64,000 nt of DNA from Candidatus Falkowbacteria bacterium (lineage in GTDB: Bacteria > Patescibacteriota > Patescibacteriia > Patescibacteriales > UBA12075), in contig DOSJ01000019.1 in NCBI GenBank assembly GCA_003514005.1, forward strand, positions 22,868 through 86,867, read 5' to 3'. The position numbers and the translations under genes were made by a program. Of the stretch, positions 6,575 through 39,780 are shown piece after piece; the stretch's first letter is position 1; every line of letters begins with the position of its first letter. A model generated the notes under the pieces. That model saw only the letters and a program-made list of their open reading frames with translations, did not search any database and had not been told where the DNA came from.

Positions 6575-9148
6575 TCATTTCACCACCACATTCACAAGCT
6601 TCCCTCCCACAAAAATAACTTTCATAATCTCTTTATCATCAATAAATTTTTTCACCTTCTCGCTCTCTAGCGCGATTTTTTTTGCGTCTTCTTCGGATAT
6701 ATTTGCATCAACTTCGATAGTATCACGCAGTTTTCCGTTCACCTGGATAACCATCTGAATCTTTTCGTCTTTGATCAATTCAGGGTCATACTTTGGCCAT
6801 GACTGTTTGAAAATTGATTCAGAATTTCCTAGTCCGCTCCAAATCTCCTCGGTAATATGCGGCGCAAACGGCGCCAAAATAATCAAAAATTTTTCATACG
6901 TATCTCGGCTAATCTCTTTTTCTTTTTCCAGGGCATTAACCAATATCATCATCGCACTAATCGCCGTATTAAACTTAAACTCCAAAATATCCTCTCCAAC
7001 CTTCTTAATGGTTTTATGCAGAAGATTTAATATCGCACTTGTCCCGGCTCCCCCACCGTGTTGCATGTTGCGTGTTGCGTGTTGCATGTTATATATTCTC
7101 TCAAGAAATTTCCTCGCCCCAACCAACCCATTCGTGCTCCAAGCAACCGACTGTGAAAACGGCCCCATAAACATTTCGTAAACACGCAAAGCGTCCGCGC
7201 CGTATTTTTCTACGATATCATTAGGATTAATCACGTTACCCCAACGCTTCGACATCTTGCGCCCGTCTTCGGCCATAATCAAACCGACATGCTGTAAACG
7301 CGTAAACGGCTCTTCGTAGTTGACCGCTCCGATATCAAATAAAAATTTGTGCCAAAAACGCGCGTATATCAAATGACGAGTGGCATGCTCGGCACCGCCG
7401 ACATAAAAATCAACCGGTGACCAGTATTTGTCTTTCTTGATATCGATTAACGCGTTATTATTTTTCGGATCAATAAACCTAAGATAATACCAACTGGATC
7501 CGGCCCACTGCGGCATAGTATTTGTTTCACGCTTGCCCGCACCGCCGCATTTCGGACATTTCGTATTCACCCATTCCGGAATAGTGGCCAAAGGCGACTC
7601 GCCAGTTCCACTTGGTTCATAATGCTCAACATCCGGTAAGCGTAACGGCAATTCCGATTCCGGCACAGGTATCGCACCGCATTTTTCGCAATGCACAATC
7701 GGTATCGGTTCGCCCCAATATCTCTGCCGCGAAAATACCCAATCTTTGATTTTGTAATTCACAGCTCTCTTGCCCAATCCTTTTTCCGTAAGCCAAGCAA
7801 TCATTTTCTCTTTGGCTTCGATAGCATAATACCCATTTAAAAATCCTGAATCAAATAACCATCCATAATCCGTAATAGCATGGGACGGATCTTTATTTAT
7901 GTCTTTTTGGGCTTGTTGTTTTAACAAAGATAATAATTCTTCATCTTCAATTTTATTTCCGCTATTAACACTAGTGGGGTTAACTGTTCTTCGTGTTAAT
8001 GTTTTTTCACTCTCATTCCAAAATTCAAGATAGCTATGAAGAATTGGTTTAATTTTAATATTATACTTCTTCGCAAACTCAAAATCTCTCTCATCATGCG
8101 CCGGCACAGCCATTATTGCCCCTGTTCCATAACCCATCATGACATAATCAGCAACAAAAATAGGCAACTCTTCTCCATTCACCGGATTGATAGCAACCAA
8201 ACCCTCAATCTTAACCCCGGTCTTTTCTTTATTAAGCTCCGTCCGTTCCATGTCCGACTTCGCCCCGGCTTTTTTCATATATTCTTCAACTTCATTAAAA
8301 TTGGAAATCGACAATCGGAAATCGGAAATTAACGGATGTTCTGGCGCAACCACAAAATAAGTCGCCCCAAATAGCGTATCCGGTCGAGTGGTGAATATTT
8401 CTTGTTCAATTTTCTTTTCATTCGGAAATCGACAATCGACAATCGCAAATTTCACAATCGCTCCCGTAGACTTCCCAATCCAATTCCTCTGCATCTCTTT
8501 GATCGAATGCTCCCAATCCGGCAATTTGTCGAGATCCGCAAGCAAGCGATCGGCATAATCCGTAATGCGCAGCACCCATTGCCGCATCGGTTTGCGCTCC
8601 ACTTCGGAATCACAGCGTTCACAACGTCCACCTTCTAGGTCTTCCATGGATAAACCGGTCTTGCAAGAAGGACACCAGATAATCGGCTCAAAAGATTCAA
8701 AAGCTAACCCGCGCTCAAACATTTTCAAAAACGCCCACTGCGTCCATTTATAAAATTCCGGATCAGTCGTATTTATCTCGCGCTCCCAATCATAAGAAAA
8801 ACCGATTTTAAGCAGCTGTTTTTTAAAAGTATCAATATTCTTTGCGGTCGCAATACGTGGATGAACCTTGTGCTTAAGGGCGTAATTCTCGGTCGGCAAC
8901 CCGAACGCATCCCAGCCCATAGGATGAAGAACATTGTAACCCTGCATTTTTTTCAAACGCGCAAAAATATCGGTCGCGATATAACCTTTCGGATGCCCGA
9001 CATGCAACCCTTCACCCGACGGATACGGAAACATATCCAAAATAAAATATTTCGGTTTTGTCGTGTCTTCGCTGGTTTTATACAGCCCGTCTTTCTCCCA
9101 TTTCTCCTGCCATTTTTTTTCTACTTCTTTGTGATTATAGTTTAACAT
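6575..9148 (-). CDS. leuS: leucine--tRNA ligase
   Basis: 857 aa. HIGH-type motif (GLHVGHPKGY), KMSKRWGN (KMSKS), FTTRPDTLFGATY and Zn-finger Cys pairs. Contains three word-repeat insertions. Confidence 0.95.
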   Translation of the reverse strand: MLNYNHKEVEKKWQEKWEKDGLYKTSEDTTKPKYFILDMFPYPSGEGLHVGHPKGYIATDIFARLKKMQGYNVLHPMGWDAFGLPTENYALKHKVHPRIATAKNIDTFKKQLLKIGFSYDWEREINTTDPEFYKWTQWAFLKMFERGLAFESFEPIIWCPSCKTGLSMEDLEGGRCERCDSEVERKPMRQWVLRITDYADRLLADLDKLPDWEHSIKEMQRNWIGKSTGAIVKFAIVDCRFPNEKKIEQEIFTTRPDTLFGATYFVVAPEHPLISDFRLSISNFNEVEEYMKKAGAKSDMERTELNKEKTGVKIEGLVAINPVNGEELPIFVADYVMMGYGTGAIMAVPAHDERDFEFAKKYNIKIKPILHSYLEFWNESEKTLTRRTVNPTSVNSGNKIEDEELLSLLKQQAQKDINKDPSHAITDYGWLFDSGFLNGYYAIEAKEKMIAWLTEKGLGKRAVNYKIKDWVFSRQRYWGEPIPIVHCEKCGAIPVPESELPLRLPDVEHYEPSGTGESPLATIPEWVNTKCPKCGGAGKRETNTMPQWAGSSWYYLRFIDPKNNNALIDIKKDKYWSPVDFYVGGAEHATRHLIYARFWHKFLFDIGAVNYEEPFTRLQHVGLIMAEDGRKMSKRWGNVINPNDIVEKYGADALRVYEMFMGPFSQSVAWSTNGLVGARKFLERIYNMQHATRNMQHGGGAGTSAILNLLHKTIKKVGEDILEFKFNTAISAMMILVNALEKEKEISRDTYEKFLIILAPFAPHITEEIWSGLGNSESIFKQSWPKYDPELIKDEKIQMVIQVNGKLRDTIEVDANISEEDAKKIALESEKVKKFIDDKEIMKVIFVGGKLVNVVVK

Positions 9149-9303: not shown

Positions 9304-9705
9304 ATGATCATTTTATTAAAAGACAAAATACAAAGATTAATATTTGGAATAGTGGTATCTGCTTGTGTCTCGTTTGCTTTTTCAGTTTTTATAAATGCCA
9401 TATTGCTAGTAGCAGATTACATAAACAAAACAAATTCAAAAACAGGATTTACTTCTATTTTTCTAATCACATTTGGCATGCTCTGTATTATTTTATTCGT
9501 TGCATTCATTTGCAATTTCTTTTATTCATTATTTGAAATATACGAACTAAGTGAAAAATGGAATATTTCATCAAATGATATTGCCGACGGAATCTATAAT
9601 TACGAAATTCAAAATTATTGGATGTTGAACGTTAAGCAATTCCAAGATTTTCTAGAAGATGCTCGACGTAAAAACCGATTAAATAAAAATAGAGCATGCG
9701 GTTAA
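9304..9705 (+). CDS. hypothetical membrane protein (orphan unit)
   Basis: ATG 9304 is preceded by GGAGGG; the track start 9292 is TTG. Two or three hydrophobic helices; no family recognised. Confidence 0.55.
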   Translation: MIILLKDKIQRLIFGIVVSACVSFAFSVFINAILLVADYINKTNSKTGFTSIFLITFGMLCIILFVAFICNFFYSLFEIYELSEKWNISSNDIADGIYNYEIQNYWMLNVKQFQDFLEDARRKNRLNKNRACG

Positions 9706-10573: not shown

Positions 10574-10618
10574 ATAATACAAATCTTAAATCGAAAATCT
10601 GAAATCGAAAATCGAAAA

Positions 10619-12337
10619 TCACCAACTCCCTCCCCCACCCCCACCAAATCCACCACCCGAGTCACCTCCGCTAAAACCACTTCCGCCAGACGATGCCGTA
10701 GACGCCATAATAGTATTAGTACTAGATTGAAAACCGCCCAAGCTATTTGTAAAAGCCAGCACGGAAAAATTTCCCATATTCGCATCGCTATACCAAGATG
10801 GATTTGTCTGATAAATATTTTCAAATTGCTTTGCCCAGGCCGCTTCAACACCCAATACCATCGCAAAAGGCAATAATTTTTCAAAAATTTGCGGATTTTT
10901 TTCTGGGGCATTGTGAAAATTAATTCTGTCCTTTTCCGCAATATTCAAATACGTTTTTAAGCCAAGGATATGCTCGCGCGCCAACACGCCTTTCTCTGAT
11001 TTTTTCGGCATAAAATTACCAAAAATCATAATAAGTAATCCTGATAACGCGAAACTAACATAACCGATTATTCCAAAAAATTGTCCAAATAAAAATCCCA
11101 AAAACACAATTACTATGCCAAATACAAAATATTTTATCCGGACAGAATTCGGATTGGAAAGAAAATAACCTTTTTCAACAACCGATTGATATACCTTTTT
11201 TGTTATTAATTGCAAATCTTTAAAAAACTTATTTTTTAAATCCGACAACTTGATTTTGTTGTCATTGCCAAATAAAGCCTGAACTAAAGTTTTTTGATAT
11301 TCGTTTAAACCGGCGCTTTCATTTTTCAATTTTGTTAATTCATAATCATCGGATTGTAAAATATTTTTTTCTTGGATTTTCTCAATTTTCAAATAACCGC
11401 GTACAGCCAAATTTATAATCTCGGCCGAAATATCTTTCTGCTGTGCCTTTTCGTCGACAATCGTTCCGATCTCGGCCGGACTTAAATTATCCGGCGCGTC
11501 GAATTGAGCGACAATAGTCCCTCGACCTTTTGGATCACGTCCATTTTTTTTCCATGAAATAAATAAAAAATAAAACACAAAAAACGGCAATAAAATAATA
11601 TAGTTATCTTTGGCAATCTCAAAAAACGTTTTGAATACTGATGGTTTTTTTACGACCCCTTTCGGCAGTCCGATAACAACGGTAACGCCCTCATGCGCGC
11701 GCAAACTGTCATCGGTAAATACCAGCTTGTCAACCATGTTTTCCGCGCTAAAATTCAAACGGCTGGAAACGCATTCTGCCGTACTGCCGGATACTCCAGT
11801 GTAGCAGATAGAGCGCAAAGATTCTTTGTTGACGCTTTCAGGCAAGGTTACCGTTGTCTTTGATCGGCTGATCGGCGTGATCCAGTTGTTGCCGGTCGCG
11901 TTCCAATAAAGCTCGTCATAATCGGCAAAATAATTGATAGCCCGTTCCACTTTATAGTGCAGTACGTATCGCATCGCTCCGGTAACAAAAACATCAGCAT
12001 CGCCAATCTTGAGACGCTTGTCATTGCCTTTGCTTTCAATCTTAAACTCAACCGCTTTTCCCTCGCCGTCTGTAACGGAAAAATCCGAATAGCGCAGTTT
12101 AAAATTCCCGCCATTATTTTTGTACTTGTACGGCAAATCGCGAAAGATGCCGTGCTTCTGTTCCGTACCAAAATCATAGGCAATGCTTTCGTCAACTTCA
12201 ATCGATGCGTCTTTGTTGATTTTGATATCTACTGTAAAATCATTAATCTGCTCCTCGGCAAATGCCGGCGATGCAAAAAATAAACAAGCTGATATTAATA
12301 GGCAAACTTGAATAAATATTTTTTTTATTTTTGACAT
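10619..12337 (-). CDS. DUF2207-type membrane protein
   Basis: 572 aa. Signal peptide, extracytoplasmic N-domain (KHGIFRDLP), TM helices and a Gly-rich tail SGGSGFSGGDSGGGFGGGGGGSW typical of DUF2207. Confidence 0.8.
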   Translation of the reverse strand: MSKIKKIFIQVCLLISACLFFASPAFAEEQINDFTVDIKINKDASIEVDESIAYDFGTEQKHGIFRDLPYKYKNNGGNFKLRYSDFSVTDGEGKAVEFKIESKGNDKRLKIGDADVFVTGAMRYVLHYKVERAINYFADYDELYWNATGNNWITPISRSKTTVTLPESVNKESLRSICYTGVSGSTAECVSSRLNFSAENMVDKLVFTDDSLRAHEGVTVVIGLPKGVVKKPSVFKTFFEIAKDNYIILLPFFVFYFLFISWKKNGRDPKGRGTIVAQFDAPDNLSPAEIGTIVDEKAQQKDISAEIINLAVRGYLKIEKIQEKNILQSDDYELTKLKNESAGLNEYQKTLVQALFGNDNKIKLSDLKNKFFKDLQLITKKVYQSVVEKGYFLSNPNSVRIKYFVFGIVIVFLGFLFGQFFGIIGYVSFALSGLLIMIFGNFMPKKSEKGVLAREHILGLKTYLNIAEKDRINFHNAPEKNPQIFEKLLPFAMVLGVEAAWAKQFENIYQTNPSWYSDANMGNFSVLAFTNSLGGFQSSTNTIMASTASSGGSGFSGGDSGGGFGGGGGGSW

Positions 12338-30938: not shown

Positions 30939-31976
30939 TCACTTTATCTTCCTTCTCACCCACCTAAGCCAATTATACATCTTATACAAAACCGAATCAA
31001 ACACCGCATCAAAAGTCCCCGGATAGTCAACTTCTTCTCCGCCATAACCTTTTTTAAACCGCGTAACTCCCGGCCATTTACTCTCGTCAATGCCAAAAAA
31101 ATCATAATATCGACAACCACGCGCCTTTGCTTCGCGAATACTCTGCCACTGCAAAGCATAAGTCGCCATCAAATTCCGATATTCATTTGAAGAAGCGCCA
31201 TGCACATAGGTCACGGTATCGCCAAAAAACGCAACAATATTTCCGGCAATAATTTTGTTTTGATATTTTGCAATAAATAATTTAATAGACAAACCTGATA
31301 TTGAATATTGATTATTGGAAATTGAATTATTATTGGATATTGAATGATTATTGAGTATTGAATATTGAACATTAAAAAGCATTTTCCAATAATACTCCTT
31401 ACCATGCAAGCGAAACCCATCACGCTCATTCGTTTCCCGCATAATCTCCCAAAACTCTTCAAAATCCTCTTTCTTAGCCTCACTAATTTCTATCCCCTTC
31501 TTTTCTGTCAAACGAATATTATAACGAGTCTTCGGATGCATCTGTTTCAATATTTCATCTTCTGATTTTGAAATATCAAGTATCAATGTCTTTTTCGGCT
31601 GCAAAGAAATTGTTTCTATAATTTTATACTTCTTACTTCTAACTTCTAACTTCACAACCGGTTCAAAACGCAAAAATATACATTTTTCTTTTTTCGCAAT
31701 TTTTTTTATCTCCAAAAACAAATCGGAAATCGCAAATCGCAAATCGCAAATCCCCACCCTTGGCGCATAAAAATACCCCAACCCCAAAAACAATCTTTTT
31801 CTAATCAAAGTAACCACGCCAACCAACTCTCCGTTTTCCTCAATCCCAAACCGAAAAACCTTATTCCCAGCCGCTTCCTGAAATTCTCCCCACTCGAAAG
31901 ACTGCAAAAATTGGCTTTGTTTTTGTTTAGTTAAATAATTATTTAATTGTTCTTTAGTTATATCTATTAATCTCAT
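30939..31976 (-). CDS. FemAB-family peptidoglycan interpeptide-bridge aminoacyltransferase
   Basis: 345 aa with FLQSFEWGEFQ, HGASSNEYRNLMATYALQW and RYYDFFGI, typical of the FemAB/FemX family. Three word-repeat insertions. Confidence 0.75.
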   Translation of the reverse strand: MRLIDITKEQLNNYLTKQKQSQFLQSFEWGEFQEAAGNKVFRFGIEENGELVGVVTLIRKRLFLGLGYFYAPRVGICDLRFAISDLFLEIKKIAKKEKCIFLRFEPVVKLEVRSKKYKIIETISLQPKKTLILDISKSEDEILKQMHPKTRYNIRLTEKKGIEISEAKKEDFEEFWEIMRETNERDGFRLHGKEYYWKMLFNVQYSILNNHSISNNNSISNNQYSISGLSIKLFIAKYQNKIIAGNIVAFFGDTVTYVHGASSNEYRNLMATYALQWQSIREAKARGCRYYDFFGIDESKWPGVTRFKKGYGGEEVDYPGTFDAVFDSVLYKMYNWLRWVRRKIK

Positions 31977-31977
31977 C

Positions 31978-32006
31978 TTGACTTAATTTTAATATTTTTA
32001 TATAAT
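31978..32006 (+). promoter_or_regulatory. near-consensus sigma70 promoter (plus strand, antisense to neighbours)
   Basis: TTGACT (31978-31983), exactly 17 nt, TATAAT (32001-32006). Confidence 0.6.
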
Positions 32007-32013
32007 ATTAACA

Positions 32014-32413
32014 TATATTGGGTAAGAGCGTATCTTGCCAGTGGTGATGCATTATAACCGTCAAACCGGAATTCTGCTTAGCCAACGCCTGTGCAGATTC
32101 CAAAAAGGAGAAACGCCTATGTTTGCACTAACCATTAATTGTACGGGGATGTTCGCTTGCTGAATTATTGACGTAACCAAAAAAAACGCGAACGCAAAAA
32201 GTTAACCGCTTATATTAAAAGGAGACATCGCCTATGTATACGTCAAAAGATAACACCATGTAATGCAGAGGGCTTAGGCACAGGAAAGCCGCTTACACGC
32301 GAATGTCTTTCGCCTAAAGACGCTTTATTCGCGTGTAAGCGCAACCCCACTTTGTTCTTTTTCAAAAAAGTTTTCAAGTATCAACTGGTATTCAAACACC
32401 AGTTTTTATTTTA
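32014..32413 (+). ncRNA. candidate ~400-nt orphan RNA with two SD-led micro-ORFs
   Basis: Bounded by the promoter above and terminator 32383-32413. Micro-ORFs at 32119-32163 (MFALTINCTGMFAC) and 32234-32263 (MYTSKDNTM), each behind AAAAGGAGA-N7-ATG. Hairpin of 15+6 bp at 32290-32341. Visibly more GC-rich than other spacers. Confidence 0.4.
32383..32413 (+). terminator. rho-independent terminator (plus strand)
   Basis: Stem aactggt / accagtt with an 8-nt loop, followed by tttttatttta. The minus-strand reading has no U-run. Confidence 0.7.
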
Positions 32414-32463
32414 TTCTTAATTCTAACTTCTTACTTCTTCCTTCTAACTTCTAACTTCTCACT

Positions 32464-33048
32464 TCATCTCCCAATCAACCGCAACGCCGCTCGAATTCTC
32501 TCACCCGAACCCTTAATACTCGGATCAACCTGCCGCAAAACATCACGCGCTTCAAACATGGAATAACCCAGGGCCATCAAAGCGTCAATCTCTTCCCCCG
32601 AAGTAATCATCCCTTTACCATCTGTCGCTTGCAGTACGCCATGTGAAATATGCGCAATCTTGTCACGCAAATCTAAAACCACACGCTCGGCAGTCTTCTT
32701 ACCGATCCCTGAAACTTTTATCAAAAGCGAAGAATCACCACGCGATATCGAATCCTTGATATCATCGACACTCGCGATGCCAATAACAGCAAGCGCCGAT
32801 TTCGGCCCAATACCGCTAATCGTCAAAAGTAATTCAAACATCTCTAATTGTTCTAATGATTTAAAACCGTACAGGGTGTGGGCATCCTCACGAATATGCT
32901 GATGAATATACAGCTCTATTTCCTGTCCGATTTCAAGGTCAACAAAAATAGTTTCACTGACAAAAACCAGGTAACCAATGTCACGCACGTTCAAAATAAT
33001 ATAATTCTTTTGTTTGTTTTGAATTTTTCCTCGTAAATACGCTATCAT
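32464..33048 (-). CDS. ruvA: Holliday junction DNA helicase subunit RuvA
   Basis: 194 aa with MIAYLRGK.., HhH motifs (ISGIGPKSALAV, VSGIGKKTAERV) and a C-terminal domain III. Confidence 0.9.
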   Translation of the reverse strand: MIAYLRGKIQNKQKNYIILNVRDIGYLVFVSETIFVDLEIGQEIELYIHQHIREDAHTLYGFKSLEQLEMFELLLTISGIGPKSALAVIGIASVDDIKDSISRGDSSLLIKVSGIGKKTAERVVLDLRDKIAHISHGVLQATDGKGMITSGEEIDALMALGYSMFEARDVLRQVDPSIKGSGERIRAALRLIGR

Positions 33049-33122: not shown

Positions 33123-34399
33123 TTTCTTCTTATCACACTAAACTCCACCACCATCTCATCCAACTCCAACCACACCAAAGCCCCCTGCCCACCATGCGCC
33201 TCTGCAATTTCCGCCCCGGTTTTAGCGTCCCAAAGCCTTTCCACCTTCAGCTTAATTATATCATACTTCGGCTTCACAATCTCAATCTCATCGCCAACTC
33301 TAATTGAATTATGAACTTTAATTAAAACCTTCTCACTTCTTGCTTTGAACTTCTTACTTCTAACTTCTAACTTCTTACTTACCACAACTCCGCAAAACTC
33401 CCACTCACTTTTCTCATGCGAATTATCCAAATTCTGATCCGCCTTATCTCCCAACAAAAACCCGGTCGTATAACCACGATGCACAAGTTTTGTTTCCAGC
33501 TCTTTTTGTAAATATTCCATTTCAACGATCTGATTTTTTTTATTTTTAATACCAAGCAATTCTATCGCCCGTGAATAAATACCCGCAACTACCGCCTGAT
33601 AATAAACGCTCTTTGCTCGTCCCTCGATCTTAAAACTTGAAATCCCAGCTTCTTGAAGTTCCTTTAAATATTTCACCAAACACAAATCCTTCGAATTCAA
33701 AATATACGACCCATGTTCTTCTTCAACAATTTCAAACTCATCACCTTTCTCATTTCTTACTTCTAACTTCTCACTTCTCACATCCCCCTTCCATCTACAA
33801 GGCTGCACGCAATCCCCCAAATTCGCGCTCCTATCCGCATAATATTTTGACAAAAAACAACGCCCTGAATAAGCCATGCACATCGCGCCATGCACGAAAT
33901 ATTCTAATTCCAAATCAGGACATTTTTTATGAATCATTTTGATTTCCGGCAAAGTCGTTTCACGACCCAGAATAATTCTTTTCACTCCTTGCGCTTGCCA
34001 AAATTTTGCCGCCTGCCAATTTGTGCAATTAGCCTGCGTGGAAAGATGAATTTCAACTTCTGGCCAAATTTCTTTTACAATCTCAATCACGCCAGGGTCA
34101 GAAATAATCAAAGCATCGACTTTTATTTTTTTTAATTTTTTAATATATACTGGCAATTTTTCCAAATGTCGATTATGCGCAAAAATATTTACGGTGATAT
34201 AAATCTTCTTACCGATTTTATGGCAATATTCAGTAGCCTCCTTAATTTTCTCCAAATCAAAATCATTAATCCTCACCCGTAAAGAAAAATCCGGAATCCC
34301 GGCATAAACCGCATCCGCCCCAAAAACAAGAGCCGTCTTCATCTTCTCCATATTCCCAGCCGGAGCAAGCAATTCAATTTTACTAAATTTTTTATCCAT
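33107..34399 (-). CDS. peptidase U32 family protein
   Basis: 430 aa with ELLAPAGN, YFVHGAMCMAYSGRCFLS, CVQPCRW and FKIEGR, typical of U32. Confidence 0.85.
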   Translation of the reverse strand: MDKKFSKIELLAPAGNMEKMKTALVFGADAVYAGIPDFSLRVRINDFDLEKIKEATEYCHKIGKKIYITVNIFAHNRHLEKLPVYIKKLKKIKVDALIISDPGVIEIVKEIWPEVEIHLSTQANCTNWQAAKFWQAQGVKRIILGRETTLPEIKMIHKKCPDLELEYFVHGAMCMAYSGRCFLSKYYADRSANLGDCVQPCRWKGDVRSEKLEVRNEKGDEFEIVEEEHGSYILNSKDLCLVKYLKELQEAGISSFKIEGRAKSVYYQAVVAGIYSRAIELLGIKNKKNQIVEMEYLQKELETKLVHRGYTTGFLLGDKADQNLDNSHEKSEWEFCGVVVSKKLEVRSKKFKARSEKVLIKVHNSIRVGDEIEIVKPKYDIIKLKVERLWDAKTGAEIAEAHGGQGALVWLELDEMVVEFSVIRRKISKL

Positions 34400-39708: not shown

Positions 39709-39780
39709 TGCTCTCGATAGGAATCGAACCTATATTACAAGTTCCGGAAACTTGCGTTCTATCCATTGAACTACGAAAGC
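39709..39780 (-). tRNA. tRNA-Arg (anticodon CCG)
   Basis: Hand-folded cloverleaf: GCTTTCG/CGAGAGC acceptor, GTTC/GAAC D-stem, CAAGT-TTCCGGA-ACTTG anticodon arm, ATAGG-TTCGATT-CCTAT T-arm, discriminator A. CCA is not encoded. Confidence 0.9.

Follow-up and report, generated by a model that had tools for sequence, protein, structure and literature searches.

Among the described regulatory RNAs, one whose gene layout comes near to that of the locus discussed here is GadY of E. coli, a cis-antisense small RNA (sRNA) encoded in the intercistronic spacer of the gadX-gadW operon. We have analysed 64,000 nucleotides of a Candidatus Falkowbacteria bacterium, an uncultured organism from groundwater (contig DOSJ01000019.1, positions 22,868 to 86,867 of the forward strand; this whole stretch is called the window below), in which a putative transcription unit occupies the spacer between ruvA and femAB and points against both genes. 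As with GadY, a promoter and a terminator of its own delimit the unit, two genes that share one orientation flank it, with the unit on the other strand, and its RNA would be fully complementary to their polycistronic transcript. Unlike GadY, with which it shares no similarity of sequence or structure, it is about four times longer and carries Shine-Dalgarno (SD)-AUG modules and a multi-helix fold that appear to be selected on its own strand; moreover, the spacer itself is an insertion here.

Three other groups of RNAs invite comparison. Attenuation leaders that act on translation or transcription and encode one or two short leader peptides (ermA, ermC, cat-86, cmlA) resemble it in their tandem SD-led open reading frames (ORFs, about 9-17 codons long), in the sequestration of an SD by a segment further downstream and in helices that exclude one another (here P4 and P5, see below), but our unit has no regulated gene downstream, its terminator looks constitutive and faces the 3' end of a convergent gene, and no conserved link between ORF and terminator was found in it. 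The dual-function sRNAs SgrS/SgrT, RNAIII/hld and SR1/SR1P are likewise stand-alone structured RNAs with ribosome-binding sites and small ORFs; these, however, encode one peptide of 26-43 aa conserved in frame, whereas in the unit the two or three ORFs, 9-23 codons long, do not keep their frames. Finally, the protein-sponge RNAs of the CsrB/RsmZ family share with it a GGA-containing motif that is repeated along a non-coding transcript delimited by a dedicated promoter and terminator, but in the unit GGA is not enriched, the two or three repeats do not appear to be placed in hairpin loops, and the motif has a start codon at canonical SD spacing.

We think that the unit is a lineage-specific, independently transcribed structured RNA gene that was inserted into the ruvA-femAB operon and is antisense to it, and we give this reading a probability of about 0.45. 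We are far more confident that a functional RNA gene of some kind lies on the plus strand, which we hold to be very probable, and more hesitant about the specific proposal of a cis-antisense, ribosome-engaging mechanism, to which we give somewhat less than even odds. As an RNA gene the element would be new to the databases, and its broad kind is a familiar one (lineage-specific bacterial small RNAs or leader-like transcripts). A preliminary description of the same DNA had already proposed an orphan plus-strand unit or structured sRNA, a proposal which the present data bear out; it had missed three points, namely the insertion into an operon, the placement of the first SD (SD1) in a bistable helix, and the third module in relatives.

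Signals and genomic setting of the unit

The promoter is of the sigma-70 type, TTGACT and TATAAT separated by 17 nt (31978-32006, plus strand; -35 box 31978-31983, -10 box 32001-32006), and agrees with the consensus at 11 of 12 positions. Its -35 box lies 1 nt from the start codon of femAB, which starts on the opposite strand. Promoter-like sites scoring at least 11/12 occur seven times on both strands of the window, compared with 2.7 +/- 1.6 in shuffled sequences. At the other end, an intrinsic terminator (32383-32413, plus strand) is made of a stem-loop with a 7-bp stem and an 8-nt loop (32383-32404), followed by UUUUUAUUUU with the U-tract TTTTTATTTT; its predicted energy is -8.2 kcal/mol, and it is the sole terminator-like site between 31000 and 33500, on the plus strand only. 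Placing the start about 7 nt past the -10 box and the end at the terminator, we infer from these signals a plus-strand transcript of about 400 nt (32013-32413). The promoter, the terminator, two SD-led micro-ORFs and a 21-bp hairpin had all been listed in the preliminary description, and all are present on the plus strand at the coordinates stated there.

The spacer that contains the unit is 487 nt long. To its left lies a femAB-family gene (30939-31976, minus strand; PF02388, E = 3e-55) and to its right ruvA (32464-33048, minus strand), whose product is 100% identical to the RuvA of Candidatus Falkowbacteria GW2011_GWC2. The same locus is found on LBUC01000003.1 of assembly GCA_000992375.1, where the NCBI record calls the same 345-aa femAB gene. 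Over more than 40 kb, from 21262 to 63550, no ORF of 120 aa or longer is found on any strand but the minus one, so that the orientation of the unit against all its neighbours, already remarked upon, is confirmed over a long distance; the remark that it is richer in GC than other spacers holds as well (0.40-0.50 vs 0.19-0.26 in the neighbouring spacers). On its right-hand border, between the terminator and the ruvA stop codon, are tandem heptamer repeats TTCTAAC/TTCTTAC (32414-32465).

In relatives whose RuvA is 69-70% identical to that of the window, ruvA and femAB are separated by only 2-14 nt, in most relatives the gap is 2-70 nt, and the spacer is shorter than 100 nt in about 25 of the about 35 loci that keep the pair, among 80 species-representative loci. 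This tight arrangement indicates that the unit is an insertion into an operon. Since our scan scored neither a promoter nor a terminator on the minus strand of the window spacer, the simplest reading is that a transcript running from ruvA to femAB must cross the unit; given such read-through, the plus-strand RNA would be perfectly complementary to the intercistronic region of the operon.

Fold and conservation in two relatives

Orthologues were sought on contigs carrying close relatives of RuvA or FemAB, and two were obtained. The first, L081 (3108-3707, minus strand of the locus), lies in a spacer of 600 nt beside a RuvA 92% identical to that of the window; the second, L086 (198-781), lies in a spacer of 584 nt, with a FemAB 74% identical and a RuvA C-terminus 82% identical. 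Both units run from promoter to terminator within ruvA-femAB spacers. The known distribution therefore amounts to three species-level variants (window, L081, L086); only about five RuvA variants at least 83% identical are present in the protein database, which suggests that the host clade is a small one.

From the ATG of femAB to the end of the -10 box, a single base differs among the three sequences: the hexamer reads TATAAT in the window and TAAAAT in L081 and L086. In the three-way alignment the 5' half is conserved, and the long hairpin and the terminator stand at matching relative positions. The window and L081 agree at 95% of positions in a core (32057-32156), whereas the third codon positions of ruvA, of the U32 peptidase gene and of femAB are 65-77% identical; the core is therefore under purifying selection at the nucleotide level.

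The predicted fold is more stable than expected on the plus strand (z-score -3.30) and less markedly so on the minus strand (-1.66). Aligning homologous spacers for covariation, as had been suggested, revealed compensatory changes in the helices, in the long hairpin and in the terminator of both relatives. Under a model with six helices in the 5' domain, pairing holds in 94.7% of the cells of the three sequences, compared with 37-49% when the partners are slid by 1-3 columns; both sides have changed in 10 of 38 pairs, a count reached in none of 500 shuffles, although these figures come from three related sequences only, for which the shuffle control overstates significance, and are to be taken as indicative. 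The domain contains 17 G.U cells and a single A.C cell, an excess which implies that the helices form on the plus strand and not on its complement.

The individual helices, all on the plus strand, are as follows. P1 (32021-32039) is a hairpin GGUAAGA, loop GCGUA, UCUUGCC, with 7 pairs, 2 both-side changes and 95% of cells paired. It is followed by P2 (32040-32053), a sequence-variable hairpin in which 3 of the 5 pairs show both-side changes, and by the short hairpin P2b (32058-32069; 4 pairs, 2 both-side changes), whose stems read CCG..CGG in the window, CUGG/CCGG in L081 and CUGA/UCAG in L086. P3 (32068-32101), helix 4 of the model combined with a reading of the alignment, is a hairpin GGAAUUCUGC ... 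GCAGAUUCC, which in L086 becomes GGGUUUUG ... CAAAACCC with a different loop.

P4 (32105-32161) deserves particular attention. Its 5' strand, 32105-32118 (AAGGAGAAACGCCU, comprising SD1 and AACGCCU), pairs with GGGGAUGUUCGCUUGCU (32146-32161) over 13 pairs, with 2 double changes, 4 one-sided changes and 95% of cells paired; its 3' strand doubles as the 3' part of micro-ORF 1, and its loop holds the invariant AUUAAUUGUA. The complement of this loop is not over-represented in the window, so that no target can be proposed from it. An alternative helix, P5 (32151-32193), pairs GUUCGC (32151-32156) with GCGAAC (32188-32193) and covaries in L086, where UUCGUUUCCU faces AGGAAACGAA. In that sequence the change of 32156 from C to U is matched both by 32110 G to A, its partner in P4, and by 32188 G to A, its partner in P5; since one nucleotide covaries with both partners, both helices appear to be selected. 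P5 is energetically favoured by 2-6 kcal/mol and P4 is transcribed first, which is the layout of a kinetic switch gating access to SD1.

Further downstream, the long hairpin P6 (32290-32341) has a 15-bp outer stem whose arms (32290-32304/32327-32341) are 100% complementary, a 6-bp inner stem (32305-32310/32316-32321) and a 5-nt loop, for a predicted energy of -28.6 kcal/mol. In the 3' part, which was aligned manually, double changes preserve 9 of the 15 outer pairs of P6 across the three sequences; the stem of L081 is almost wholly different and includes three G.U pairs, with pairing on the plus strand only. Likewise, double changes in L081 and L086 preserve 4 of the 7 pairs of the terminator stem, the U-tract being kept, and an extra hairpin between modules 2 and 3 of these two relatives also covaries.

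One may ask whether the unit is simply inserted DNA without function, left behind by a mobile element or of foreign origin, in which the promoter-like and terminator-like signals arose fortuitously. The insertion is indeed confined to one small clade, unrelated insertions occupy the ruvA-femAB junction of other relatives, and the GC content of the unit is closer to that of coding DNA than to that of spacers. Inert DNA would not be expected, however, to keep six helices, a long hairpin and a terminator through compensatory changes, or to conserve a core beyond synonymous sites; besides, the unit has no inverted repeats at its borders or termini, is present as a single copy in the window with none elsewhere in 710 kb of relatives' loci, and gave no match in the phage, plasmid, viral or metagenome collections searched. 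We therefore consider this explanation very improbable. A miniature inverted-repeat transposable element or another small mobile element was likewise rejected, there being no terminal inverted repeats and no extra copy in the window or in the relatives' loci.

It was also possible that a known RNA family had been overlooked, and a scan with Rfam covariance models had been advised for this reason. With Rfam 15, whose families include RNase P, tmRNA, 6S and SRP RNAs, riboswitches and ribosomal-protein leaders, the sole match at gathering thresholds in the whole window is a tRNA at 39709-39780. A permissive scan of 31900-32500 gave at best mir-9456 (23.7 bits, threshold 80) and L20_leader (20.6 bits, threshold 58.7), sub-threshold scores which the hairpin or the terminator explains. 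In L081 and L086 the orthologous units matched no family, and ARAGORN found no transfer-messenger RNA. The idea of an RNase P RNA, raised by the strings 'GGUAAGAGCG' and 'CAGGAAAGUCGC', was abandoned, as the second string is missing in L081 and no covariance model matched. Searches for further members were equally negative: nhmmer and blastn of the unit found nothing in the ruvA loci of 80 relatives, a covariance model of the 5' domain (R1) matched the window alone in the 710 kb of relatives' loci, two patterns had no match in IMG/VR, and blastn had none among plasmids and phages. A two-module DNA pattern, searched in the metagenome collection of the Joint Genome Institute, which lacks even the window's own contig, retrieved 11 stretches, all of them unrelated coding repeats.

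The SD-AUG modules and the short ORFs

Module 1 (32105-32121, plus strand) consists of AAGGAGA (32105-32111), AAC, GCCU and AUG (32119-32121) and belongs to the 95%-identical core; behind its AAGGAGA comes micro-ORF 1, MFALTINCTGMFAC (32119-32163, plus strand). Module 2 (32219-32263 with its ORF, plus strand), preceded by an AU-rich tract, consists of AAGGAGA (32219-32225), CAUC, GCCU and the AUG at 32234, which opens micro-ORF 2, MYTSKDNTM (32234-32263). The duplicated block pointed out in the preliminary description is thus real, but the formula given for it was one base off for copy 1 (GGAGA-AAC-GCCTATG, as opposed to GGAGA-CATC-GCCTATG). By chance the module pattern AAGGAGANNNNGCCTATGT should occur 0.04 times in the window when as many as 2 mismatches are allowed, and GGAG-N4-6-CCTATG is absent from 85 other loci (about 700 kb). 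There are two copies in the window and three each in L081 and L086, and each of these eight modules, with an AU-rich tract ahead of it, retains AAGGA(G/A)A and the AUG, set 7-8 nt apart by 3-4 nt and (G/A)CCU. Elsewhere in the window a 5-mer SD precedes just one of 45 gene starts (9304), in agreement with the scarcity first noticed on about a dozen starts.

Do these modules serve to produce peptides? In such a case the unit would be a small polycistronic mRNA for functional micropeptides of 9-17 aa (M[FN]AL[TI]INC..., MxxSKxNT[MI]), its structure merely controlling translation, and part of the evidence is favourable. The AUGs and SDs of the modules are invariant and optimally spaced, with AU-rich tracts upstream; the first eight residues of ORF1 are in frame in all three sequences; ORF1 has 14 codons in both the window and L081 (MFALTINC(T/K)GMFA(C/F)), with different stop codons at the same position; and the module-2 ORFs of the window and of L086 (MRVSKTNTI) both have 9 codons although 10 of 30 nt differ, with synonymous changes at Lys, Thr and Asn. 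On the other hand, ORF1, which reads MFALTINCKGMFAF in L081, is MNALIINCKDVRFLAIC in L086, where its tail is frame-shifted by a 2-nt deletion, and module 2 of L081 (MFVQRGTL...) is shifted by a 1-nt indel, which makes two frame-shifting cases in three orthologous ORF comparisons. The ORFs of modules 2 and 3 fall into two classes, MYTSKDNTM / MRVSKTNTI / MIKMKENTI and MFVQRGTL... / MYVQRGTLRA, both of which read the motif CAAAGAnnAACAC, in different frames. The differences in ORF1 number 1, 3 and 3 over codon positions 1, 2 and 3, without third-position excess; the P4/P5 pairing explains the conserved nucleotides of its tail; and lengths of 9-23 codons are those expected by chance after an AUG at this composition. 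Since frames are broken by indels, functional peptides are unlikely, and so are micro-ORF peptides as the product of this RNA. The dual-function RNA of the preliminary description is thus not supported in the form proposed there, although all SD-AUG starts are conserved. Nor does the unit look like a type I toxin-antitoxin locus, for which one expects a hydrophobic toxin ORF of about 20-60 aa with an overlapping antisense RNA: its conserved SD-led ORFs have 9-14 aa and do not resemble transmembrane segments. Longer ORFs across the unit (42, 39, 44 and 31 aa) were rejected as coding because they are not conserved, the 42-aa ORF started by TTG at 32035-32163 being interrupted by TAA in L081.

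A second possibility is that the RNA senses stalled ribosomes, as leaders of the erm/cat/cmlA type do: a drug or a metabolite would stall ribosomes on the mini-ORFs, the hairpins would be remodelled, and transcription would pass the terminator, antisense, into ruvA. Or else it could be the relic leader of a lost resistance gene. The tandem SD-led ORFs of 9-17 codons, the sequestration of an SD and the alternative helices are what such a leader would need. The class-A peptides (MYTSKDNTM, MRVSKTNTI, MIKMKENTI) also seem to resemble the 9-codon leader of cmlA, a resemblance that is only a lead. In the cmlA leader, chloramphenicol-dependent arrest has been assigned to the motif KNAD (PMC10192921). 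Against a sensor speak the absence of any plus-strand gene downstream for more than 30 kb (there is none in 21262-63550), the next feature being the 3' end of the convergent ruvA; the variable distance (12-27 nt) that separates the long hairpin from the stop of the mini-ORF; and the lack of a conserved pairing between ORF and terminator, a C:E pairing read by eye in the window being absent in L081 and L086. We find this possibility improbable.

A third possibility, raised in the preliminary description under the form of a protein sponge with exposed GGA motifs, is a decoy whose AAGGAGA...GCCUAUG modules would titrate a CsrA-like protein, or the 3' tail of 16S rRNA or 30S subunits. An invariant 14-nt module present in two or three copies per RNA is in line with this idea, as is a conserved (A/G)GGAUGU element, which resembles a CsrA site. 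However, GGA is observed 5, 6 and 9 times in the three units, when shuffled sequences lead one to expect 4.9, 4.8 and 5.9; two or three modules are few compared with the 5-22 sites of known sponges; and the modules appear to lie outside hairpin loops, with no special exposure predicted, the predicted accessibility of the SDs not exceeding the average of the RNA. High expression of csrA, reported for groundwater ultra-small prokaryotes (PMC9938205), may be counted in favour of a sponge. The proposal of exposed GGA motifs is not supported, and we regard a decoy of this kind as a poor candidate.

As for translation initiation in the window at large, TATAAT-like hexamers are found 4-6 nt upstream of many ATGs (e.g. 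5637, 9148, 17531, 28772, 45552), which suggests widespread leaderless mRNAs. The only SD-led gene, 9304-9705 (plus strand), has GGAGGG, 5 nt and ATG, encodes 133 aa without Pfam match, and is preceded by a TTGACA-like promoter region around 9226.

Possible role and other elements at the junction

If the unit is indeed an inserted antisense RNA gene, we propose the following scenario. RNA polymerase would start at about 32013 from the near-consensus promoter abutting the femAB start codon, head away from femAB, and stop about 50 nt short of the stop codon of ruvA, at the terminator. The RNA would begin with a 5' domain of four hairpins, followed by a bistable element (P4 sequesters the first SD-AUG module, P5 releases it), by one more SD-AUG module, AU-rich (two in the relatives), and by the covarying long hairpin. 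The modules would be loading sites for 30S subunits at the head of short ORFs, the peptides not being the product. The RNA would act in cis, as it is complementary to the intercistronic region and as its promoter overlaps the 5' end of femAB, and the expression of femAB could be uncoupled from that of ruvA, or tuned relative to it, by transcriptional interference and/or antisense pairing. The signals, the conservation, the covariation, the strand bias and the insertion can be read from the sequences themselves; transcription, the loading of ribosomes and the cis-regulatory outcome are deduced from this anatomy.

Several observations weigh against this scenario. A TAAAAT on the minus strand, 9 nt upstream of the femAB ATG, was read by eye below the threshold of our scan, and femAB may have a weak promoter of its own inside the invariant 36 nt, which would weaken the read-through argument. 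The covariation counts are small and come from three distinct but related sequences. Thermodynamic predictions give the SDs no exposure above the average of the RNA (P(unpaired) 0.05-0.59, mean 0.44), SD1 lying in P4. An anti-SD motif was detected in only 48% of the 16S genes of Parcubacteria (PMC9297842), and if it is absent from this genome the modules cannot be ribosome-loading sites. Lastly, a pure cis-antisense role leaves the strong retention of the SD-N4-GCCUAUG modules and of the plus-strand folds unexplained.

In a further reading, the unit would be a dedicated SD-array transcript: its two or three perfect SD-AUG modules, gated by P4/P5, might bind 30S subunits or the 3' tail of 16S rRNA in its free state. 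The reading is drawn from the fact that the host is nearly SD-less (1 of 45 genes) and belongs to a phylum-level group often devoid of the anti-SD; if true, the RNA would be a ribosome-directed regulator, or else it would serve as template for a small, specialised translation system that depends on SDs. We hold it to be unlikely.

Returning to the inserted antisense gene, its interest lies first in the fact that the regulatory RNAs of the Candidate Phyla Radiation are almost unexplored; the locus offers a candidate with clear limits, in which covarying helices and a bistable element that sequesters an SD lie between a promoter and a terminator. The unit splits a conserved operon joining recombination (ruvA) to the synthesis of cell-wall cross-bridges (femAB) and could serve as a case study of a reduced genome rewiring an operon by means of an inserted antisense unit. 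Canonical SD-AUG modules in an SD-less host also offer a handle on whether SD/anti-SD pairing still works in Parcubacteria. The narrow distribution limits the present weight of these considerations.

A second antisense unit was observed at the same ruvA-femAB site in another clade (L003:3428-3757, L107:3146-3562, L110:3145-3631 and L109:1057-1366, all minus strand), formed by loci L003, L107/L108, L109 and L110-L112, whose RuvA proteins are about 64% identical to that of the window and 85-100% identical among themselves. It has a consensus promoter, then an invariant ...GUGUCCUGUUUGGGCAAnUGAAAGGAGGUGA of which 11 nt exactly complement the canonical 16S 3' tail; this invariant 11-nt complement of the anti-SD, AAAGGAGGUGA, has no start codon after it in L107 and L110. 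An ORF rich in Thr, Lys and Ala (12, 31, 36 or 46 codons), with in-frame indels and 15-nt duplications, has no homologue in the protein database, and the terminator is a 21-bp hairpin containing GGCCUAUG. The L003 unit shares 'ACGCCUAUGnUUGC', a P1-like hairpin loop and its position with the unit of the window, and a hidden Markov model of the module reaches it with E = 0.013; it was nevertheless rejected as a homologue, since R1 scores 6.3 bits and a profile of the L003 clade misses the window clade, and we regard it as a positional analogue. The existence of a non-homologous unit at the same place hints that such units could be a recurrent device in Falkowbacteria-like genomes. Upstream of it, L003 has another small antisense unit (L003:3758-4012, minus strand), with TTGACA-17-TATATT, a hairpin RNA of about 90 nt (GUACUUGUGGGCGCAAGCCCC...ACAAGUAC) that has no Rfam match, and a terminator.

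More generally, the ruvA-femAB junction is a hot spot of insertion (L084:5583-5758, L038:4562-5166, L027:4574-6170, L020:4577-5574, L080:1441-1999), with ORFs of 167 aa in L038, 199 and 253 aa in L027, 243 aa in L020 and 169 aa in L080. The junction ORF of L084 begins with MQKDYNFYVYIV and is presumably GIY-YIG-like. On the minus strand of L016 (4577-4870) and of L038 (4562-4680), a TTGACA-17-TAnnnT promoter is directed away from femAB, 4-8 nt from its start codon, and is followed by a short hairpin-terminator RNA, in spacers unrelated to that of the window; the divergent-promoter arrangement at femAB may thus be recurrent. Palindromic elements (G)TCATTCCCGCGAAAGCGGGAAT...GATGACAAA, which look like intergenic repeats of the repetitive extragenic palindromic type, recur in relatives' spacers (L083:777-943, L001:3771-4067, L101:2246-2500).

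Short tandem repeats with a period of 7-8 nt are abundant across the window (85 rows of Tandem Repeats Finder output), with units including TTCTAAC, CAAATCG, AAATCGA, TGTTGCA and CTAATTAA. They sit in spacers, at gene ends and, in frame, within coding regions, as in femAB (31628-31653 and 31719-31752) and in the U32 peptidase gene (33329-33380 and 33747-33781); further examples are 32414-32465, 10581-10620 and 7059-7090. The best match of the window FemAB in the protein search is 74% identical, with none at 100%, and the protein has low-complexity inserts (SILNNHSISNNNSISNNQYSIS) derived from tandem repeats at 31298-31373. At the same place after ruvA, relatives have different heptamers, CCTAATA in L083 and ATTCGCG in L107 and L110.

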